From an uncultured Gammaproteobacteria bacterium (GTDB lineage: Bacteria > Patescibacteriota > Microgenomatia > Daviesbacterales > UBA10151): 64,000 bases of DNA. This document shows, in pieces, positions 22,902 through 50,468 of the stretch. The notes beneath the pieces are model-generated. The model saw only the letters and a program-made list of their open reading frames with translations, searched no databases and was not told where the DNA came from. The stretch spans positions 107,724 through 171,723 of the forward strand of contig CAZWRN010000001.1 of assembly GCA_964636275.1 (NCBI GenBank). Reading direction: 5' to 3'. How positions within the stretch are numbered: the first letter of the stretch is position 1; each line of letters opens with the position of its first letter. A program made the translations under genes and the position numbers.

Positions 22902-22938
22902 TTGACAGGTATTAGCACTCGCGGTATTATATTGCTAA
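22902..22938 (+). promoter_or_regulatory. sigma-70-like promoter overlapping a CIRCE-like HrcA operator upstream of hrcA
   Basis: TTGACA (22902-22907), 17 nt, TATTAT (22925-22930). 'TTAGCACTC-N9-TATTGCTAA' (22912-22938) matches CIRCE TTAGCACTC-N9-GAGTGCTAA, with the left half perfect and the right half 6/9. Confidence 0.6.
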
Positions 22939-22977: not shown

Positions 22978-23709
22978 ATGGATTTAACTGACAGACAAAG
23001 AGAGCTTTTAAAGGCGATAGTCGAATTGCACGTTAAAACAGGCGAATCAGTTGGGTCAGAAGCGGTTGAGAGAGAAGCCAATTTAGGTGTTTCCCCAGCC
23101 ACTATTCGTAATGAAATGGTACGACTGACAGAGATGGGTTATCTGAGACAGCCACATACTAGTGCTGGTCGTGTGCCGACCTCCATGGGATACAAAATAT
23201 ATATCCAGGAGTTGATGAAGGAGCGCCAAGTTCCGGTGATGGCAGAAGTTCAGATGAAACAGCAGATGTGGCAGCGTCGCCACAAAGAGCAGCAGATGTT
23301 TCGGGAAGCTGCTAAAGCTTTGGCCAATCGGTGTCAGATGCTAGCAATGGCGATCACAGAAGATGGCGATCTTTATTACGCAGGGACATCCTATATTTTG
23401 GATTTTCCGGAGTTTGAAGATATCGATGTCACCAGATTTGTTCTGAGCCTTTTTGATGAATATCCGACTTTGCAAAATATTATTGGTAAAGCAGTCGGAC
23501 CAGATCCGATGCATATTTTATTTGGCGAAGATCTGGGAATAGAAAATCTACTGCCAACTGGATTTGTTTTCTGCCGATTTAAAGGTAGAAATGAAGAAAA
23601 AAGTGGTGTGGTTGGGGTAATCGGACCAGCTCGGATGAACTTTCCGGTGGTTTTACCCTATGTTCGTTACACCGCAAATGTGTTAGAAGATGCATTGAAG
23701 AGCTATTAG
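22978..23709 (+). CDS. hrcA: heat-inducible transcription repressor HrcA (short)
   Basis: N-terminal wHTH 'LTDRQRELLKAIVELHVKTGESVGSEAV...SPATIRNEMVRLTEMGYLRQPHTSAGRVPT'; CIRCE-like operator immediately upstream; followed by grpE-dnaK-dnaJ. Confidence 0.75.
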   Translation: MDLTDRQRELLKAIVELHVKTGESVGSEAVEREANLGVSPATIRNEMVRLTEMGYLRQPHTSAGRVPTSMGYKIYIQELMKERQVPVMAEVQMKQQMWQRRHKEQQMFREAAKALANRCQMLAMAITEDGDLYYAGTSYILDFPEFEDIDVTRFVLSLFDEYPTLQNIIGKAVGPDPMHILFGEDLGIENLLPTGFVFCRFKGRNEEKSGVVGVIGPARMNFPVVLPYVRYTANVLEDALKSY

Positions 23710-23718
23710 GAGAAAATG

Positions 23719-23826
23719 GATCAAGTAACAAGATACAAGTACCAAGATATAAGTACCAAACAATATTTAATTGGTAAATTGATCAGATTTCAAATTGTTT
23801 GGAATATTTGATTAATTGTTTCTTGG
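23719..23826. repeat. palindromic intergenic element, copy upstream of grpE
   Basis: Left arm GATCAAGTAACAAGATACAAGTACCAAGATATAAG; core AAATTGATCAGATTTCAAATTG; right arm TTTGGAATATTTGATTAATTGTTTCTTGG. Confidence 0.6.
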
Positions 23827-23840
23827 AAAGCTTAAAACTT

Positions 23841-24449
23841 ATGGCTAAGAATGACCAACAGCAAACTGAAGAAGAACTAACTGATGATGTAGCTCCTCAT
23901 GCGGAAAATGTTGAAAGCAAACAGTTGGCAGAAGACAGTAAAAAGACTAAGGGACAGGATTGTGAATGTGAAGATTGCAGCTGTGGTACTTGTGATTGTG
24001 AAGATTGTGATAAGTGTCAGAAAATTAAAGCTGAACTTGAGGAGATGACAACCAAATACAAACGGGCTTTGGCTGATTATCAAAATCTGGAAAAACGGGT
24101 AGCAGAGGGAAGAAGTGAACTGGCTGCCTGGGCTGGATCAGAAGTGATTAAAAAGATTTTACCAGTCATGGATCATTTTGATAAAGCTTTGAGTGGAGTG
24201 AGTGAGGATGAGGCGAAGTCAGGGTGGTTTAAAGGGGTGAAAATGAGTGTATTACAGCTTCAGCAGGTAATGCAAAGTGAAGGGTTGGAACAGATTGAAA
24301 CAGACGGACAATTTGATCCCACCCTTCACGAAGCGGTAGACACGAAAGAAGGTAAGGATGGTCAGATTTTAGAAGTAGTTGAAAAAGGCTGGAAGCTTAA
24401 TGGTAAAATAGTGAAGCCAGCCAGGGTGGTAGTTGGGAAAAAGGGATAA
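23841..24449 (+). CDS. grpE: nucleotide exchange factor GrpE with N-terminal Cys-rich insert
   Basis: 'VMDHFDKAL' and GrpE coiled-coil/beta-domain; 'DCECEDCSCGTCDCEDCDKC' cluster near the N-terminus. ATG at 23841 preferred over the TTG at 23799 that lies inside an intergenic repeat. Confidence 0.8.
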   Translation: MAKNDQQQTEEELTDDVAPHAENVESKQLAEDSKKTKGQDCECEDCSCGTCDCEDCDKCQKIKAELEEMTTKYKRALADYQNLEKRVAEGRSELAAWAGSEVIKKILPVMDHFDKALSGVSEDEAKSGWFKGVKMSVLQLQQVMQSEGLEQIETDGQFDPTLHEAVDTKEGKDGQILEVVEKGWKLNGKIVKPARVVVGKKG

Positions 24450-24487
24450 TAAGGAAATCCTTCGACTCGCTAACGCTCGCTCAGGAT

Positions 24488-24520
24488 GACAAATCAATTT
24501 GAAATTATATTTGATTTGTC
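24488..24520 (+). promoter_or_regulatory. perfect 10-bp inverted repeat between grpE and dnaK
   Basis: GACAAATCAA-N13-TTGATTTGTC. No U-tract follows, so it is not a classical terminator; candidate processing/stability hairpin or operator. Confidence 0.4.
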
Positions 24521-24541
24521 AAAAAACGAAAGGAATTATAT

Positions 24542-26461
24542 ATGGCTAAGATTATAGGAATAGATTTAGGTACAACAAATAGTGCGATGGCGGTGATGGA
24601 GGGTGGTAAACCCAAAGTTATCCATTCTGCAGAAGGCGCAAATACGATTCCTTCTGTGGTAAACCCGGTTAAAAGTGTGGTGGGTACTCCAGCCAAAAGA
24701 CAAGCGATTGTCAATCCAAAAGAGACAATCTTCTCCGTTAAGCGTCTGATGGGTCGAAAGCTGGATGATCCAGAAGTTCAGCGAGATCTGAAATGGCTGC
24801 CTTATGAAGTCAAAGCCGGTAAAAACGGTATGGCTGTAGTGTCTGTAGATGGTAAAGAATATACTCCACAAGAGATTTCAGCGATGGTGCTAAGTAAGAT
24901 CAAAGCTGATGCTGAGGCTTATTTGGGAGACAAAGTTACGGAAGCTGTCATTACCGTTCCTGCATACTTTGATGACTCCCAAAGACAGGCTACCAAGCAG
25001 GCAGGTGAGATTGCGGGGCTTAATGTTCAAAGGATCATCAATGAACCAACTGCTGCTGCATTGGCTTATGGTTTGGATAAACAAAACGCTCATACTATTG
25101 CTGTGTATGATCTTGGGGGCGGTACTTTTGATGTATCTATCCTTGAGCTGGGCGATGGTGTATTTGAAGTAAAGTCAACCAATGGTGACACTCACTTGGG
25201 TGGTGACGATTTCGATCAAGTGATTATTGACTATATTGCTGAAGAATTTAAGAAAGAGAGTGGTGTAGATCTCAAAAATGATAAACAAGCTTTGCAAAGA
25301 CTCAAAGATGCAGCTGAAAAAGCGAAAATCGAGCTGTCTTCTTCTCAGGAAACAGATATTTCTATCCCATTTGTGACAGCTGATGCTACCGGTCCTAAAC
25401 ATATCGATATGAAGCTGTCTCGAGCCAAGCTGGAAGCTTTGGTTCAGGGACTGATTGATAAATCATTTGATGCGGTTAAAGCGGCTTTAGCTGATGCCAA
25501 AATTGATGCCTCCAAAGTCGATGAAGTGGTGTTGGTTGGGGGTATGACCAGAATGCCAGCCGTACAAGCAGCAGTGGAGAAATTCTTTGGTAAAGAGCCA
25601 CATAAAGGTATTAATCCTGATGAAGTGGTAGCTATCGGTGCTGCAATTCAGGGAGGTGTCTTGGGGGGTGAAGTCAAAGATGTATTGCTGCTCGATGTGA
25701 CCCCTCTGACTTTGGGGATTGAAACACTGGGGGCTGTAAGTACACCGTTGATCCCTCGCAACAGTACTATTCCAACTTCAAAATCTGAAACTTTCTCGAC
25801 CGCGGCTGACAATCAGACCTCAGTGGAGATCAATGTGCTCCAAGGTGAAAGACAGATGGCAGCTGACAACAAATCTTTGGGTCGCTTTATGCTGGATGGT
25901 ATTCCACCAGCCCCTCGAGGAACTCCTCAGGTTGAAGTGACTTTTGATATCGATGCTTCCGGAATTTTGCATGTATCAGCCAAAGAGAAAACTACTGGTA
26001 AAGAGCAAAAAATCACTATTACCGGATCAACTGGTCTTGATAAAGATGAAGTTGAGCGAATGACCAAAGAAGCGGAAGCTCATGCTGAAGAAGATAAAAA
26101 GAAAAAAGAGGAGATTGAGACCCGAAATACGGCTGAACAGATCGTCTATACAGCTGAAAAAAGCCTGAAAGATGCTGAAGGTAAGATCGGTGATGATCTG
26201 AAAAAAGAAGTTGAAGAGAAGATTCAAGCAGTTAAAGATGCCAAAGAAGGTCCAATTGATGAATTAAAAGCCAAAGCAGATGCACTAGGTGAAAGTATGC
26301 AAAAAATCGGTGCTGAGATGTATAAAAACCAGCAACCAGCTGACAGTCAACAGTCTACAGCTGAAACAGGATCCGAAGAGCCAAAAACTGAATCCAATGA
26401 TGTTAAAGACGAAGCAGTTGAAGGCGAAGTAGTGGAAGAAGAGAAGAAAAAGGAAGAATAA
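24542..26461 (+). CDS. dnaK: chaperone DnaK (Hsp70)
   Basis: '[10 protein letters not shown]', 'DLGGGTFD', '[10 protein letters not shown]' Hsp70 signatures; acidic EEKKKEE C-terminus. Confidence 0.95.
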
Positions 26462-26471
26462 AGATTTAAGA

Positions 26472-26690
26472 TTGATGATTAAAAATGGGGAAATTGTGGT
26501 TAATAATTTTGTAAGAAGAGCTGGGCGTTGGCAGAAAGTTAATTGGCCGCCACAATTGCCTGAGTATGTTCTTGATAACTACCGTCAAGTAGGTTTTGGA
26601 ATGCAATATGTTAGCACGTTAAGGGTGTTGGATGGAGCATTACGAATTTATGTAGGCGTTCCAATAGAAAAAAGCTCGAAATTAACTTAA
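26472..26690 (+). CDS. hypothetical small protein
   Basis: 72-aa ORF between dnaK and an intrinsic terminator; no motif recognised. Confidence 0.25.
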   Translation: MMIKNGEIVVNNFVRRAGRWQKVNWPPQLPEYVLDNYRQVGFGMQYVSTLRVLDGALRIYVGVPIEKSSKLT

Positions 26691-26737
26691 GAAAAATTGA
26701 GTCAAAAAAGGAACTATAATTATTGTATCATATAAAC

Positions 26738-26759
26738 CTCGGGAGACCGGGGTTTTTTT
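26738..26759 (+). terminator. intrinsic terminator downstream of dnaK/small ORF
   Basis: CCTCGG-GAGA-CCGGGG stem with GNRA loop followed by TTTTTTT. Confidence 0.5.
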
Positions 26760-26840
26760 AAAGTTACAAGTCGCAAGAATCAAGTTGCAAGGAAAATATC
26801 CTTGACTCTAGACTCTTGTCACTGAGACACTACTAGATGT

Positions 26841-27761
26841 ATGGCTAAAAGAGATTTTTATGAAGTATTAGGAATAAAAAAAGGGGCTTCTGAACAGGAG
26901 ATCAAGTCAGCGTACCGTAAATTGGCACGTCAGCACCATCCGGATGTTGATAAATCACCAGGTGCAGCTGATAAATTTAAAGAGATCTCTGAAGCGTATC
27001 AGGTACTTTCGGATCCTCAGAAAAAACAAACCTACGATCAGTTTGGTCATGCTGCTTTTGACCGAGGAGCTGGTGGTTTTGGGGGTGGGGGAAATCCCTT
27101 TGGTGAAGGTTTTAATCCTTTCGGACAGGGCGGATTTTCCTATCAGTGGTCGCAAAATGGTGGTGGGGAGGACTTTGGTTTTTCAGATCCATTTGATCTT
27201 TTCAATCAAATTTTTGGTATGTCAGGTGGAGGCTTTGGACCTAGACGACCCACCTATCAGCTGCAAATCAGTTTTGATGATGCGATAAAGGGGGCTGAGA
27301 AAGAAATTGAAGTTCAGTCACAATCTAGAGATGGCAAAATCGATCGTAAAAGGATGAAGGTGAAGATTCCAGCCGGGGTTGATGATGGTACCAGAATGCG
27401 TTTTGGCGAGATGGATATCGTTTTTAGGGTCCAAAAAAGCACTAAATTTATCCGAGAAGGAGCTGATATTTTCACTGAAGCCAAACTGGGTATTCCTCAG
27501 GTGGTGTTGGGAGATACTATTTCAGTCGAAACTGTGCAGGGTAAAGTGAGTATTAAAGTTCCCTCTGGTACCCAACCAGGATCCTTGATTCGGATTAAAG
27601 GTAAAGGAGTTGCTAATTTGTCCCGAGGAGGTATGGGAGATCATTATGTCAGAGTCCGTCTTGAAGTGCCTGCAGATGTCAGTGGTGAAGAGAAAAAACT
27701 GTATGAACAGCTGGCTGCACTAAAATCTGCTAAAGGTAAGAAAAAAGCTGGCTGGTTTTAA
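26841..27761 (+). CDS. dnaJ: DnaJ-family co-chaperone lacking the zinc-finger domain (CbpA/type-II-like)
   Basis: J domain 'DFYEVLGI...[11 protein letters not shown]', G/F-rich region, C-terminal beta-sandwich domains; no CxxCxGxG repeats. Confidence 0.8.
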
Positions 27762-28270: not shown

Positions 28271-29629
28271 TCAGCGTGAAAAGACGAGGTCTAACAGTTG
28301 GTTGTATTCTTCGGTCATTTGAGCGTATTTTCGGGCTTCATTGGCTTCTGATTCTGAGAAAGTTTCATCTTTTTGGCTTTTAGCCAGGGCTTTAGTAGCA
28401 AAAGCCTTTTGTTCATTTACGATTGTTATCATCCGCTGGATTTTAGTTTGGTCTTTTTCAGATCCTACCCATTGGGGTAAGTTGGAACTTTCCTGATTGA
28501 GATAGGTGAGTTCATCTTGCCAATATTTGATAGCTTCGGCTTTTTCTTCCGGAGTTGTTTTAGCAGGGAGTGGGGTAGCTTTTGTTTTAGGTTGAATGTT
28601 AAGATTTGCTTTTCCTAGCTCCATATATAATTGAGTTTGGTAGCCATCTTTGATAGTTATTGTAATCATTCGGCCGATACTGCCATTTTTTTCTAAAATG
28701 ATTTCATGATCACCGGTGGTTAGATCTTCACTGATAAATGGGGTTTTCCCCACAGGTTTACCATCAATAGTTATTTGTACCTCAGACGGATTGGAAGTGA
28801 TTTTTACCCCTTTTCCTTCAGTTAAACTGATCATTTCGCCGGCATTGACCTCTTTATGGAGATCGCGAGATATGGTCATCATATAGCCCCGAACGAGGGT
28901 TACTGTGCCTTCCCATTCCACCGCATTTGGATCAGTGGTTTTGAGGTTGATTTTATATTCTCCTGGAGCAATTTTTTCATCAAAGTAAGGGGTTTCGCCC
29001 TTTTGTTCACCGTTTATAAAGACGGTAGCTTTTGGTTCAGATCGAATATCCAATCCTGAGGGACGTCTTGATTCCTGGTAATCATCTATAAGCTGGGTAA
29101 AAGATTGTTTTAATGACTCATTGGCCAGAGCCGTTTTGACCGTCTGTTGGCCAAAAAAGACGAGTGAGCCGATGAGACCCAGCAATACAACGAGTCCTAT
29201 GAACCAGTAATTACCAGTTTTTATAACGAGTGATCCGACTGCCTGATCATGCCAGGCTTGTCTTTTATCATTCTTCAAAATTGCCAGATATCCAAATCCA
29301 AAAAGGAGCGAAGAAAACATATACCCAATGGTTTGACGAAACATAATTCGTTTCCAAGCGAGTGTGGTGCCATCCAGGCCAGTAATTTTAATTCCGGTTA
29401 ATAGTTTGCCTAGCGTACCCCCAAACCATCGAGTCATAAAGATCTGATAGAGCAAGCCCACAGGAGAAAGAAGCACCAGAAGTAAAAGAAACAGATTGGT
29501 AACTAATTCTGGAATATCTGCACTTTTAACTGTTAAATTTATAAAATAAAAAGCTATTGCCATCGCAATGAGAGTATCTATAAAAGATGCCTGCAGTCGA
29601 TGGAAAAAGTGAGCTTCTTTATGATTCAT
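28271..29629 (-). CDS. RDD-family membrane protein fused to two PEGA domains and a coiled-coil tail
   Basis: N-terminal RDD domain ('RQAWHD'), TM helices, then 'VFINGEQKGETPYFDEKIAPGEYKI' and 'VQITIDGKPVGKTPF..GDHEIILEKNG' PEGA repeats. Start likely MNHKEAHFF. Confidence 0.55.
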   Translation of the reverse strand: MNHKEAHFFHRLQASFIDTLIAMAIAFYFINLTVKSADIPELVTNLFLLLLVLLSPVGLLYQIFMTRWFGGTLGKLLTGIKITGLDGTTLAWKRIMFRQTIGYMFSSLLFGFGYLAILKNDKRQAWHDQAVGSLVIKTGNYWFIGLVVLLGLIGSLVFFGQQTVKTALANESLKQSFTQLIDDYQESRRPSGLDIRSEPKATVFINGEQKGETPYFDEKIAPGEYKINLKTTDPNAVEWEGTVTLVRGYMMTISRDLHKEVNAGEMISLTEGKGVKITSNPSEVQITIDGKPVGKTPFISEDLTTGDHEIILEKNGSIGRMITITIKDGYQTQLYMELGKANLNIQPKTKATPLPAKTTPEEKAEAIKYWQDELTYLNQESSNLPQWVGSEKDQTKIQRMITIVNEQKAFATKALAKSQKDETFSESEANEARKYAQMTEEYNQLLDLVFSR

Positions 29630-30674
29630 TGGTGTATTTTCCTTTGATTTTGTCGTAGGCGATAGTCCAAACAGAGGCTTTAAAAGCCTGAACAACAGCT
29701 CCAAGTATGACCATGATTGGAATTAAAATAGCTGTAGCAGCCACTGCTAGACCGATCAGCACGGGAGAGATCTCTTTGGTCATAAAGTACCCAATAAAGC
29801 TAGGAGCAATGGCGGCTATTAAAAGGAATACTGGTACCATGGTTACTATGATTGCAGCAAAGGTATTAACAATTCCTAATATCAAAGAGGCGCCCTTTTT
29901 CTTTTTAGCGATCTTAAATCCATTCCAAAAAGCTTGTTTGGCACTTAGATCAGAGATAGCAACTTCGCGATACCCCCAAATAATGCCTACTGAGATCAAT
30001 AAAGCGTAGTAAAGTAGTGGAATGAGTCCAAGAATCCCCAGAACCAATACAATCCCTTTAACTGTGAAATTACCTAAAATCATACCTAATGTAAATAAAA
30101 ATCCATAGATAAAAGCTATGGTAAAAACAATTAACCAAGGAATAATATCTAACCAGATAAAAGACTTAATATGTTTAAAACCAGATTCTGAAGCTTCTGC
30201 GATGGTGGTTTTACTGTGTTTGTAGGCGCTATAAACGCTTTCAATCAAGGAAGCGTGAGCCCAGGCTCGGTAAATGACACTAATCAGAATGCCCACTACA
30301 ATCAGAAATAAAATTTCTCCAGCTAGGATCATGTAATAATGTTTGGGGATTCGATTGAGTATTTCTATCCCCAGTAGCTGAAAAGGACCAATCGAATCTC
30401 CTAGTACCTGAGCCATTTCAGCACTTGAAGAAGCTTCTGGTATTCCTTGGTTGAATAGTTTTTGCAGGCTTTCTGAGTCTCCGCTGGATGATGAGTTGAA
30501 ATTGGAAGAACCAGCAGCGGTGGCTGCGACTGCTGCGCCAAAAATCCAGGTTACTTTATGATTTTTAATGATTTGCCAGGATTTTGAGTAGAGGTCAGAG
30601 ATTTCCCAGTCTTTTTGCGATGGTTTTTCGTCTACTAAGTGAAAATCAGTTTTTTCTTCTTTATCGTCAGACAT
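29619..30674 (-). CDS. polytopic membrane protein (unknown family)
   Basis: About 7 TM helices; acidic cytoplasmic N-terminus; no family motif recognised. Confidence 0.45.
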   Translation of the reverse strand: MSDDKEEKTDFHLVDEKPSQKDWEISDLYSKSWQIIKNHKVTWIFGAAVAATAAGSSNFNSSSSGDSESLQKLFNQGIPEASSSAEMAQVLGDSIGPFQLLGIEILNRIPKHYYMILAGEILFLIVVGILISVIYRAWAHASLIESVYSAYKHSKTTIAEASESGFKHIKSFIWLDIIPWLIVFTIAFIYGFLFTLGMILGNFTVKGIVLVLGILGLIPLLYYALLISVGIIWGYREVAISDLSAKQAFWNGFKIAKKKKGASLILGIVNTFAAIIVTMVPVFLLIAAIAPSFIGYFMTKEISPVLIGLAVAATAILIPIMVILGAVVQAFKASVWTIAYDKIKGKYTNES

Positions 30675-30776: not shown

Positions 30777-30839
30777 CTTAAATGTAGCTGATGATTTGAT
30801 CTGTTGACAAGTAAGCAGTTTTTTGGTCAACTTAGATTA

Positions 30840-31766
30840 ATGCCTAATACTTCTGGGGGTTGGTACAAAGCCACAATCTTACGACGTTTCTTCGCTGTTT
30901 TTATTGATGGTGTCATTATTTCTATTGCTGCTGGTTTATTGACTAGTATCGTTCCACAGGATGCAACGTATCAATCTGGATTCCAATCAGTTATTTCGTT
31001 GCTGGGGTGGTTGTATGCGGTACTTTTTATCTGGCTTAAAGGGGCTACTTTAGGAAAGATGGCGATGGGTATTCAGGTAGTTAAAACCGACGGACGAAAG
31101 CTCAATTTATGGGAGGCTTTTTTACGGGAGGTAATTGGTAAATTTATTTCAGCTATAGTTTTTATGCTGGGATATTTGTGGGTACTTTGGGATAAAAATC
31201 GTCAGGCCTGGCATGATCATATTGCGGGTACCTATGTGGTTACTAAAATCCCGAATGATGGGAAAAATCCTGGTTGTTTGGTGATGCTGATCATTGGAGC
31301 CGTTGCTTTTGTTCCTATTGTAGCTATTTTAGCTGCAGTAGCAGTGCTTGCTATTAATCCCCTAGAACTCACCAGACAGTCTCGTGATGCAGCTCGATTG
31401 AGTGATGGGGCTATCTTGGCTAAAGTAATTAATGAAGAACACATGCAAAATCAAACTGATTTTTGTTCTGGTGCTGCTTCATGCACGGGTAAGTCTAATC
31501 AGGATTCAGCGGTTTTGGACGGAACCGGCTGGGTGAAGATGGTGATACCTGTTTCAGCTATTCCAGATCCTATGAATAAAGGACCAATGCTCCCTATAGA
31601 TCCGATAAATGATGCCACCTATTTTTATACTTATTGTTCAGATGGACAAAATTGGGAGATCGATTTTCAGCTCGAATCAGAGAAATATAAATCCAAAATG
31701 CTTGAGGATGGTGGAGATAGTGATATTTATTATGAAGTCGGTTCGGATATGACCTTGTGTAAATAA
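30840..31766 (+). CDS. RDD-family membrane protein with Cys-containing extracellular C-terminal domain
   Basis: 'RRFFAVFIDGVIISIAAGLL...NRQAWHDHIAGTYVV' RDD domain; ATG 30840 preferred over upstream TTG. Confidence 0.6.
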   Translation: MPNTSGGWYKATILRRFFAVFIDGVIISIAAGLLTSIVPQDATYQSGFQSVISLLGWLYAVLFIWLKGATLGKMAMGIQVVKTDGRKLNLWEAFLREVIGKFISAIVFMLGYLWVLWDKNRQAWHDHIAGTYVVTKIPNDGKNPGCLVMLIIGAVAFVPIVAILAAVAVLAINPLELTRQSRDAARLSDGAILAKVINEEHMQNQTDFCSGAASCTGKSNQDSAVLDGTGWVKMVIPVSAIPDPMNKGPMLPIDPINDATYFYTYCSDGQNWEIDFQLESEKYKSKMLEDGGDSDIYYEVGSDMTLCK

Positions 31767-49232: not shown

Positions 49233-50468
49233 ATGTCAAGTTCTCCAGAACAAACTCGTGATATTCAAAGAGAGATTGTGTATGGAAGTATAAGGAATCA
49301 AGTAAGCAGGGAACTATTAAGAAAAGAAGTGCCTGATGATATTACCTTTAATAAGCGAGAGTATGGTAATCGGCAGAAGCAAATGAATTTTAGCCTGTTG
49401 CTTCAGAATGAAGGTGGCAATATTTATTCCTATCTGCTTGGGATTGCTGCAACAGCAAAAAATCCTAATCAATTATCAAACGCAATAAGTTCTTTTGGTG
49501 TTTTATCTTCGTTGAGGCGTTACTCTCAGCAAGGCAGAGATCAAGTCGACCAAGCAGAAAATGAATTTCTTGGAAAAACATATCCTCCGGTCGAAGCTAC
49601 TGCTGTTGCACGGTCTATGGAGGGTACATTGCTATCAATTTGGAACAAAACAAAACATCATGAAGGTATTTTGGTTGATTACATTAATCAGGAACTCACG
49701 CCGTTTAATAATAAAGAGCAGATAAATAAATATATGATTGAAAGTTTTATTCTGACTCTAATTGATAAAAATATTCCGGTTGAGTTTAAAAAGTTTTTAC
49801 TTAGACGATTTGAATCTTTGAGTTTTGGAAATTCATCTTATACAGGGGTTGATGGTCAATTTGGTGCTTCGGCTAGTATTTGGAAAAATGTTGATGCTTC
49901 ATGGGTACTGCCAGAACTTTTTGGTGCAAAGGGGTTTAATGGAGATCCAAGAGATAGAGAGATTGCTGAGCTTAGATATAAATTGCGCCAGTTTCAAAAT
50001 AAAGAAGATGGTGTCGATACAATAGATGCTCAGAAAGCTGAGAGTCAGAGATTAGAAGATGAAATAAGTCAATTGCGGAATCAATTGGAAGAAAAACAAA
50101 GGAGAGTAGATCAGCTCACTTCAGATAATTACCGTTTACAACAAAGTAATGCCGGGCTTAAAGAAGAAAATGCTCGTCTACGCCATGAAAGCACTGCAAC
50201 TGTTCGTGAACCTGCTCGAAGATCTCCTTGGGATGTCTTGGGTATAGATCGTCAAATGTGGGAAAAAGCCAATCAGAATAAAGATACTTCAGCGATGAGG
50301 CAGATGCTTAATACTGCTCGCAGGCCACTATTGATGAAATATCACCCAGACCAACATCCTAGTGTTAGAACTGATCCAGTGGTTAAAGAATTGATGGATG
50401 AGAGAGCAAAGGAGATCAATAAAGCTGTTGATGATTTGGTTGTGATTTATAAATTGCCTCGAGTTTAG
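49233..50468 (+). CDS. J-domain protein: unknown 300-aa N-terminal domain, coiled coil, C-terminal J domain
   Basis: C-terminal 'WDVLGI....LLMKYHPDQH' with HPD tripeptide; heptad-rich 'ISQLRNQLEEKQRRVDQLTSDNYRLQQSNAGLKEENARLRHE'. Confidence 0.55.
   Translation: MSSSPEQTRDIQREIVYGSIRNQVSRELLRKEVPDDITFNKREYGNRQKQMNFSLLLQNEGGNIYSYLLGIAATAKNPNQLSNAISSFGVLSSLRRYSQQGRDQVDQAENEFLGKTYPPVEATAVARSMEGTLLSIWNKTKHHEGILVDYINQELTPFNNKEQINKYMIESFILTLIDKNIPVEFKKFLLRRFESLSFGNSSYTGVDGQFGASASIWKNVDASWVLPELFGAKGFNGDPRDREIAELRYKLRQFQNKEDGVDTIDAQKAESQRLEDEISQLRNQLEEKQRRVDQLTSDNYRLQQSNAGLKEENARLRHESTATVREPARRSPWDVLGIDRQMWEKANQNKDTSAMRQMLNTARRPLLMKYHPDQHPSVRTDPVVKELMDERAKEINKAVDDLVVIYKLPRV

Follow-up and report, generated by a model that had tools for sequence, protein, structure and literature searches.

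The window analysed here is the whole stretch of 64,000 nucleotides from a metagenome-assembled genome (MAG) that was deposited as an uncultured Gammaproteobacteria bacterium (contig CAZWRN010000001.1). It contains a chaperone operon of the order hrcA-grpE-dnaK-(small open reading frame, ORF)-dnaJ at 22978-27761 on the + strand. The nucleotide exchange factor GrpE encoded in this operon carries a dense cysteine cluster in the peptide DCECEDCSCGTCDCEDCDKC (GrpE residues 40-59). A preliminary description, made from the letters alone, had reported eight Cys in 20 residues at 23952-24020, and the codons indeed lie inside that interval, at 23961-24017. The gene and those of its features that concern the cluster are as follows.

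23841-24449, + strand: grpE, 202 aa plus stop (PF01025 and PDB GrpE matches; N-terminus common to homologues)
23877-23903, + strand: N-terminal tail motif LTDDVAPHA, aa 13-21 (from the alignment; kept in close relatives with and without Cys)
23961-24017, + strand: Cys cluster CECEDCSC-GT-CDCEDCDKC, aa 41-59, 8 Cys (codon-level comparison)
23961-23984, + strand: unit 1, CxCxxCxC (C41, C43, C46, C48), an extra copy absent from 4- and 5-Cys relatives
23991-24017, + strand: unit 2, CxCxxCxxC (C51, C53, C56, C59), common to P0002 and P0003, with variants in P0004, P0005 and L001
23960-23977 and 23990-24007, + strand: the two copies of an 18-nt direct repeat, 94% identical, at 30-nt spacing
24009-24194, + strand: long stalk helix, aa 57-118 (AlphaFold2 model; heptad hydrophobic pattern)

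GrpE architecture and the cysteine cluster

By its matches the protein is a bona fide GrpE. It scored 125.2 bits against Pfam PF01025 (cut-off 25.8), with residues 58-200 on profile positions 19-165 of 165, and it matched the structures 4ANI, 3A6M and 1DKG in the PDB with a best E-value of 2.9e-19; the second Pfam signal was CLZ only, below threshold. The ORF as called spans 23799-24449. Since every homologue begins with MSKQDDK or MAKNDQ at the position of the ATG at 23841, this ATG was taken as the true start and the TTG at 23799 was rejected. An antisense ORF (23877-24083, 68 aa) was also rejected as a gene, as it lies wholly within grpE, which has hundreds of homologues.

The AlphaFold2 (AF2) model of the monomer, built with 113 homologues, predicts the layout of bacterial GrpE proteins such as 1DKG, 4ANI and 3A6M: a disordered acidic N-terminal tail, a long stalk helix, short helices and a beta domain (helices at 57-118, 122-125 and 128-146, then six strands). 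The full-length Pfam match and the position in an hrcA-grpE-dnaK-dnaJ operon with a CIRCE-like (controlling inverted repeat of chaperone expression) operator are shared with these proteins as well. Residues 1-38 and 40-42 are disordered in the model, with a predicted local distance difference test score (pLDDT) below 50. The mean pLDDT is 51 for residues 41-50, 73 for residues 51-60 and above 90 for the blocks from about residue 61 on; 140 of the 202 residues reach 90 or more. What sets the window GrpE apart from other GrpE proteins are the eight Cys at the junction of tail and stalk. The preliminary description put the cluster just N-terminal to the long helix; this holds, and with the predicted helix start at residue 57 the cluster even runs into it.

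Such a density of Cys is exceptional for this DNA. Cys makes up 0.69% of the 18,912 residues encoded by 60 non-overlapping ORFs of the window, and no other ORF in the window has more than three Cys per 20 residues. From that frequency, the binomial probability of eight Cys is about 6e-13 per 20-residue window. There is no His among GrpE residues 38-62.

Related GrpE proteins contain shorter forms of the same region: CDCENCEEC in P0002, CDCDNCEKC in P0003, CECENCDC in P0004, CDCESCDCQKC in P0005 and CECENCDCGEC in L001. Whole-protein identity among these forms is 75-99%. The Cys columns stay the same in them although the spacers vary (D/E/N/S/Q/K/G), and the Cys codons alternate between TGT and TGC. 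Unit 1 of the window falls where all 4-, 5- and 0-Cys relatives show a gap of 30 or more columns, and the window has at least 30 extra nt at the cluster compared with every one of these forms. Because an 18-nt direct repeat recurs here at 30-nt spacing and a weak Tandem Repeats Finder (TRF) array of period 15 is present at 23958-24011, the sequence supports an origin of the 8-Cys form by a 30-nt tandem duplication of one 10-residue, 4-Cys unit. The local DNA expansion that the preliminary description had read from TGTGA(A/T) repeats is thereby borne out. As part of our best explanation, though with the reserve that applies to it, we regard a unit of 4-5 Cys (CxCxxCxC / CxCxxCxxC) as ancestral in the lineage.

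The position of the cluster relative to the stalk was derived from column statistics, which gave the heptad pattern a59, d62, a66, d69, a73, a80, d83, a87. In 90% of the Cys-less homologues, position 59 holds L, F or V. C59 therefore appears to occupy heptad position a, the first position of the stalk interface, where a Leu is otherwise conserved; C56 and C59 lie on the first turn of the stalk. In five separate clades the last Cys precedes the A of the invariant ADY by exactly 19 residues and so falls on position 59. Over all clades the last Cys occupies an a or d position in about 10 of 18 compared with about five expected, a count in which indels could shift the register, so that a preference for these positions is only suggestive. 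GrpE-family proteins dimerise through parallel stalk helices (PMC6089081) and the two clusters of a dimer would therefore be placed side by side.

Occurrence and evolution of the cluster

The cluster is found in independent samples. An 8-Cys allele that is 99% identical occurs in JGI sample 3300046786 (P0001, a cluster of 11 sequences), and a diverged 8-Cys version, GCDCENCDCGTCECEDCEKC, occurs in ENA data (P0370). The 4-Cys form P0004 was present on 14 contigs, of which the four places shown were four different samples or assemblies, and the 5-Cys form belongs to a GTDB species representative (L001). As the same or diverged alleles come from independent metagenomes, we rejected an artefactual origin. 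The two objections raised in the preliminary description, absence from all close orthologues and a sequencing artefact in a low-complexity region, are both answered in this way, since orthologues carry the cluster and the independent samples exclude the artefact.

To place the cluster among GrpE proteins, 414 sequences were collected and N-terminal Cys were counted upstream of the ADYxN motif. As the preliminary description had stated, canonical GrpE proteins lack such a cluster: 365 of the 414 have no N-terminal Cys at all, and 348 have no Cys C-terminal of ADYxN. At least three N-terminal Cys were found in 25 sequences and the exact CxCxxCxC in 13. Among the 120 closest GrpE clusters, six have a Cys cluster, two a single Cys and 112 none. 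The less biased estimates (1/80 GTDB loci, 6/120 close relatives and about 6/149 representatives) put the frequency at roughly 1-5% of lineages. Many further Cys-bearing proteins came from the 50%-identity representatives and from a profile search, among them P0130 (11 Cys), P0168 (CNCEPCDCGDNCKC), P0371, P0377, P0381, P0382, P0384, P0380, P0255 and P0179. The clade of P0138, P0372 and P0373 carries 6-7 N-terminal Cys; each of its three known members keeps VCENC where the helix begins. The CxCxxC(xC) spacing also appears in GrpE proteins that are only 35-60% identical, with different codon contexts, and this recurrence with the same spacing argues for a function. Some relatives combine CxC with His, for example HEGHECECDHEK.

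The distribution is patchy. The 23 Cys-bearing proteins with a full C-terminal part form 16 identity clusters, and for nearly all of these a Cys-less GrpE is at least as near as any other Cys-bearing cluster. The feature thus recurs in no fewer than 16 separate lineages of GrpE. Since the Cys-bearers are mostly at least as close to Cys-less proteins, many gains or losses must have occurred and, as far as these comparisons go, the GrpE Cys cluster is young, sporadic and repeatedly gained or lost. Within the lineage of the window it is retained in part, with 4, 5 or 8 Cys, and is missing from some of the closest relatives; the conservation that the preliminary description wanted to see is thus only partial.

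The loci L083 (4 Cys) and L091 (0 Cys) illustrate this at the DNA level. Their GrpE C-terminal parts, from ADYxN to the end, are 100% identical in protein, and from hrcA to dnaK they share about 88-90% DNA identity versus 28-47% at the cluster; the linker around the cluster is the most divergent stretch of the hrcA-dnaK region. In a neighbour-joining tree of the C-terminal domain, which is based on about 135 residues and has low resolution, the Cys-bearers form one clade that also takes in the Cys-less P0006, P0007, P0008 and P0011 as nested branches, a pattern that suggests a single gain followed by loss or replacement.

The preliminary description also proposed to look for other CxCxxC-type proteins. 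In about 1 Mb of related loci the motif occurred outside GrpE only in short ORFs of spurious look, and from this survey it is not a general habit of these proteomes.

The nearest named relatives of the window GrpE belong to Candidatus Daviesbacteria (Microgenomates group, Patescibacteria or candidate phyla radiation, CPR). Many MAG records titled 'uncultured Gammaproteobacteria bacterium' (accessions beginning with CAY or CAZ, among L001-L080) carry Patescibacteria-type operons whose GrpE, DnaK and DnaJ are 50-75% identical to Daviesbacteria proteins, and the organism names in these record titles look wrong.

The operon and its zinc-finger-less DnaJ

The remaining features of the operon are the following.

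22902-22930, + strand: promoter-like site TTGACA-17-TATTAT, 11/12 matches, upstream of hrcA and overlapping the CIRCE-like element
22912-22938, + strand: CIRCE-like inverted repeat with 2 mismatches to the HrcA operator consensus
22978-23709, + strand: hrcA, 243 aa (PF01628 and PF03444)
24542-26461, + strand: dnaK, 639 aa, 0 Cys (ORF list and Pfam)
26841-27761, + strand: dnaJ, class B, 306 aa (J domain with HPD, Gly/Phe-rich region, DnaJ_C, no zinc finger)

The window contained one CIRCE-like match compared with 0.03 expected by chance. Because this repeat is overlapped by a promoter-like site, the operon is probably under heat-shock control by HrcA.

The operon DnaJ has PF00226 at residues 5-66, including the HPD motif, and PF01556 at residues 139-277, continuous on profile positions 3-152. 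Pfam reported no zinc-finger domain in this protein, and the CxxCxGxG motif is absent from the six-frame translation of the whole window, in agreement with the preliminary description. In its HPD J domain, Gly/Phe-rich region and uninterrupted DnaJ_C it resembles class B J-domain proteins of the CbpA/Sis1 type. The dnaJ slot of dnaK operons elsewhere is normally occupied by a class-A DnaJ, whereas in Patescibacteria a class-B protein fills it in every locus examined. Of the 80 related GTDB loci that we compared, 55 are Patescibacteria-type operons with dnaJ, and all 55 encode a DnaJ of about 290-330 aa with 0-1 Cys and no CxxCxGxG. In the nine outgroup loci (Verrucomicrobia, Chloroflexi, Peptococcaceae, Planctomycetes and others), this motif is present 3-4 times. 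A class-B DnaJ is also found at the P0004 and P0093 loci, and the loci L093, L095 and L096, with Cys-bearing GrpE outside Daviesbacteria, have no adjacent dnaJ.

The title of the preliminary description implied that the GrpE cluster is linked to the lost zinc finger of DnaJ. This link finds no support here: in 54 of the 55 operons the zinc-finger-less DnaJ is accompanied by a Cys-less GrpE, and L001 alone has a Cys-bearing one. As there is no co-variation across the 55 operons, loss of the DnaJ zinc finger appears unrelated to the GrpE cluster. On this comparison, the class-B DnaJ is an ancient, phylum-wide trait of Patescibacteria and the cluster a sporadic one; connecting the two is a tempting but wrong inference that is now corrected.

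Several smaller observations concern the operon and its surroundings. The spacer between hrcA and grpE (23700-23800) contains short direct repeats, AAGATACAAGTACCAAGATATAAGTACCAA; here the window is 35-47% identical to L083 and L091, while these two are 80-98% identical to each other. The small ORF between dnaK and dnaJ (26475-26690, + strand, ~71 aa) is without a Pfam match; a homologue in L084 (36% identical over 63 aa, E = 6e-11) occupies the corresponding place in the operon. Unrelated 98-aa ORFs are present in the operons of other relatives, in the dnaK-dnaJ gap of L091 and in the grpE-dnaK gap of L081, and it seems that the dnaK operon in these bacteria gathers small unknown genes. A terminator-like hairpin at 26734-26759 (+ strand; AACCUCGGGAGACCGGGGUU followed by a U run; -15.4 kcal/mol, z = -3.1), which the consensus scan did not pick up, sits between the small ORF and dnaJ. 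Because of this hairpin, dnaJ may be transcribed separately from hrcA-grpE-dnaK. In the relative that bears P0373 (L095, 6662-9062), a NUDIX gene separates grpE from dnaK, and the dnaK call is split into two overlapping pieces of 326 and 333 aa, which could reflect a frameshift, a pseudogene or an assembly error.

The operon is flanked by two RDD-family membrane proteins, at 28271-29704 (- strand) and 30804-31766 (+ strand), one of them with PEGA domains. The MFS_3 transporter, LepA, TIG-domain protein and RDD/PEGA neighbours are syntenic in L091 and partly in L085 and L086; the neighbourhood is conserved across genomes of about 88% average nucleotide identity (ANI). Further downstream, a 411-aa ORF (49233-50468, + strand) contains KYHPD about 40 residues from its C-terminus, in surroundings like J-domain helix II/III. 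Pfam gave no J-domain match for this ORF, only weak sub-threshold matches of coiled-coil type, and its product could be a divergent J-like protein or the resemblance a coincidence.

Possible roles of the cysteine cluster

The presence of the cluster, its inheritance, duplication and recurrence, its motif spacing and its heptad register are directly established. Metal binding, bridging between the subunits and an effect on exchange activity are what we infer beyond this. The explanation that we put forward, with a confidence slightly short of even, is that the cluster is a selectively maintained, metallothionein-like Cys module that forms a redox- or metal-responsive thiolate clasp joining the stalk helices. 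The module would have been built in the hypervariable linker that connects the disordered N-terminal tail to the stalk helix, and homodimerisation of GrpE would bring both clusters together as a clasp at the N-terminal ends of the two stalk helices. When reduced, the clasp would hold Zn(II) or another soft metal, and upon oxidation the metal-thiolate clasp would convert to disulfides. It would then staple and rigidify the N-terminal end of the stalk, altering the bending or unfolding of the stalk and the reach of the N-terminal tail, and in this way nucleotide exchange and substrate release by DnaK could come to depend on oxidants or on metal status. As a second benefit, GrpE, being abundant and probably HrcA-controlled, might buffer metal or oxidants. 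The metal- or redox-sensor idea of the preliminary description is thus plausible and is strengthened by motif spacing and heptad register. Its suggestion of a thermosensor found no indication in the cluster beyond the known role of the stalk.

Regulation through the stalk has precedents. In bacteria the GrpE stalk is the thermosensor and contacts the DnaK interdomain linker (PMC12987570). In human GRPEL2, H2O2 leads to a disulfide between the protomers at stalk Cys87 (PMC6089081), and this disulfide lowers the affinity for mtHsp70, probably by rigidifying the stalk (PMC12987570). Yeast Mge1 is also reported to be an oxidative sensor (PMC3596242). Like GRPEL2 and Mge1, the window protein is a member of the GrpE family, with a putative redox-reactive residue, C59, that the heptad register would place on the interface face of the stalk. 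Unlike GRPEL2, which has one mid-stalk Cys, and Mge1, which has a Met, it has a cluster of the 4-8 Cys type at the start of the stalk. Based on a GRPEL2 sequence that is consistent with the published Cys87/Cys97 numbering, Cys87 presumably aligns with Y80 of the window protein. Y80 is a heptad a position, exactly three heptads from C59.

The metallothionein-like spacing suggests metal binding besides disulfide chemistry. In SmtA/BmtA, too, CxCxxCxC opens the metal-binding region: C41-C48 of the window protein read CECEDCSC, compared with KCACEPCLC in 1JJD and CGCPDCHC in 6GV7 from Pseudomonas, and P0168 has CNCEPCDC where SmtA has CACEPCLC. Unlike SmtA/BmtA, which is a protein of about 55 aa, the GrpE cluster is a segment of a larger protein, and it is without family match, His ligands, zinc-finger-like fold and C-terminal Cys/His half. 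The ligand set of SmtA is given as Cys9His2 (PMC10119931); GrpE falls short of this set with eight Cys in the window protein, 4-5 in relatives and no His. Two other systems are alike in concept only. The chaperone-system protein Hsp33 has a Zn(Cys)4 centre that upon oxidation releases zinc and forms disulfides, and in the Rad50 zinc hook the CxxC motifs of two protomers share one Zn at coiled-coil ends. When the motif patterns are compared, spacing and folds of both differ from the GrpE cluster and indicate no homology: in Hsp33 the CxC and CxxC are about 30 residues apart, a spacing not seen in the window GrpE, in which Pfam finds no Hsp33 domain. The four CxxCxGxG repeats of a DnaJ-type zinc finger are absent from GrpE as well. 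Because there is no profile match, no His ligand and a spacing wrong for both the DnaJ zinc finger and Hsp33, the Cys module falls, by these comparisons, outside the BmtA, DnaJ zinc-finger and Hsp33 families. By analogy, its action may combine that of a metallothionein or zinc-switch segment with a stalk disulfide of the GRPEL2 type.

A number of points weigh against a clasp. Strongly acidic spacers such as these are uncommon in metallothioneins and at Zn(Cys)4 sites. Three Cys segments gave no Pfam match and two gave no PDB sequence match at E-values up to 10, where composition filtering probably removes such queries; since the Cys segment has no Pfam or PDB match, the metallothionein resemblance is, in sequence terms, one of spacing only. 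The Cys number ranges from 3 to 14, although a tuned switch would want a fixed geometry. The cluster is absent in P0006, P0008, P0009 and P0010, in which the rest of the protein is 87-100% identical, so it is dispensable and perhaps only weakly selected. The Daviesbacteria MAG protein P0093, with 14 Cys and found in two assemblies, has no Cys-cluster kin among its 119 nearest neighbours (all 0-1 Cys), and we take its cluster to be a young or isolated case. Finally, the profile search with Cys-bearing N-termini, which was the source of many of the examples, is skewed to Cys-rich N-termini, and MAFFT pairs Cys with Cys by construction, a caveat to the conservation of the Cys columns.

One rival reading is a near-neutral expansion, in which slippage or duplication of the TGTGA(A/T) type in an acidic hypervariable linker produced tolerated, functionless Cys runs. 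The tandem 30-nt duplication and the TRF array are present, the linker is the fastest-evolving and most indel-rich part of the locus, close relatives lack the cluster, and its lineage frequency is low, with one in 80 GTDB species representatives. Nevertheless, we consider this origin unlikely, since the Cys columns are conserved through synonymous codon changes while the spacers vary, the CxCxxC(xC) spacing recurs in distantly related GrpE proteins in different codon contexts, the motif turned up in no plausible gene other than grpE within about 1 Mb of related DNA, Cys is rare in the proteome (0.69%), and one divergent clade has the cluster in all three known members. Because Cys positions are kept while the spacers vary and the Cys codons change synonymously, selection rather than noise is cautiously favoured as part of the clasp explanation. 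Another rival reading is a metal store or buffer only: a metallothionein-like peptide, carried on an abundant and probably HrcA-controlled cofactor, that sequesters Zn, Cu or Cd or hands them on, or that scavenges oxidants, and does not regulate GrpE. The His/Cys-rich tails of Helicobacter HspA (GroES) and of SlyD are precedents for this. A varying copy number (4, 5, 8 or 14 Cys) with rapid gain and loss is typical of a capacity-type adaptation, the cluster has the same spacing as SmtA, variants with His plus Cys exist, and the operon has a CIRCE-like operator and a promoter-like site. However, a buffer has no need of the fixed register of the last Cys at a predicted interface position in five clades, the capacity of a 4-Cys unit would be very small, and metal-homeostasis genes were not seen among the window neighbours that were scanned. 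A buffer alone thus also seems an unlikely account.

Two further possibilities appear weaker. One is an iron-sulfur site, in which the 4-8 Cys, possibly across the dimer, would coordinate a [2Fe-2S] or [4Fe-4S] cluster through which GrpE would respond to O2 or iron. In its favour, each protomer has four Cys close together beside the dimer axis, Patescibacteria are mostly anaerobic fermenters, and the chloroplast J-proteins CDJ3/4 offer a precedent as they contain Fe-S. We judge it improbable, because CxCxxCxC is not a known Fe-S motif, the Cys number is highly variable and the surroundings are acidic and disordered. The idea that the GrpE cluster stands in functionally for the missing zinc-finger domain of DnaJ draws on an operon DnaJ without CxxCxGxG and on the eight Cys of the window GrpE, the same number as in the DnaJ zinc-finger domain. 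It deserves hardly any credence: apart from the missing co-variation in 54 of 55 operons, most Cys-bearing relatives have only 4-5 Cys, the GrpE motif differs from CxxCxGxG, and the DnaJ zinc finger is located in the substrate-binding CTD-I, a role foreign to GrpE.

Returning to the thiolate clasp, a bolder version would be that a zinc-thiolate/disulfide clasp (CxCxxCxC...C) evolved repeatedly, in Patescibacteria and a few other bacteria, at the position where the interface of the GrpE stalk begins. Through it the exchange factor would directly sense redox or metal status for the Hsp70 cycle, and bacteria would have a counterpart of GRPEL2 Cys87 with Hsp33-like zinc-switch chemistry, in organisms without a zinc finger in the operon DnaJ. 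We regard this version as doubtful in its full extent. In bacteria GrpE is regarded as a thermosensor and, to our knowledge, a role as redox sensor is known only from mitochondria (Mge1 and GRPEL2). A literature search on Cys-rich or metal-binding GrpE, including the metallothionein, zinc-binding and Patescibacteria angles, yielded no description, and neither zinc nor metal is mentioned in a 2025 review on GrpE-like factors, where GRPEL2 Cys87 is the only case discussed (PMC12987570); we thus found no earlier description of the GrpE Cys cluster in the literature. The alleles with 0, 4, 5 and 8 Cys, in which the rest of the protein is 87-100% identical, constitute natural matched controls. If the bolder version is true, it would be the first case of bacterial redox or metal control that acts on the nucleotide exchange factor.

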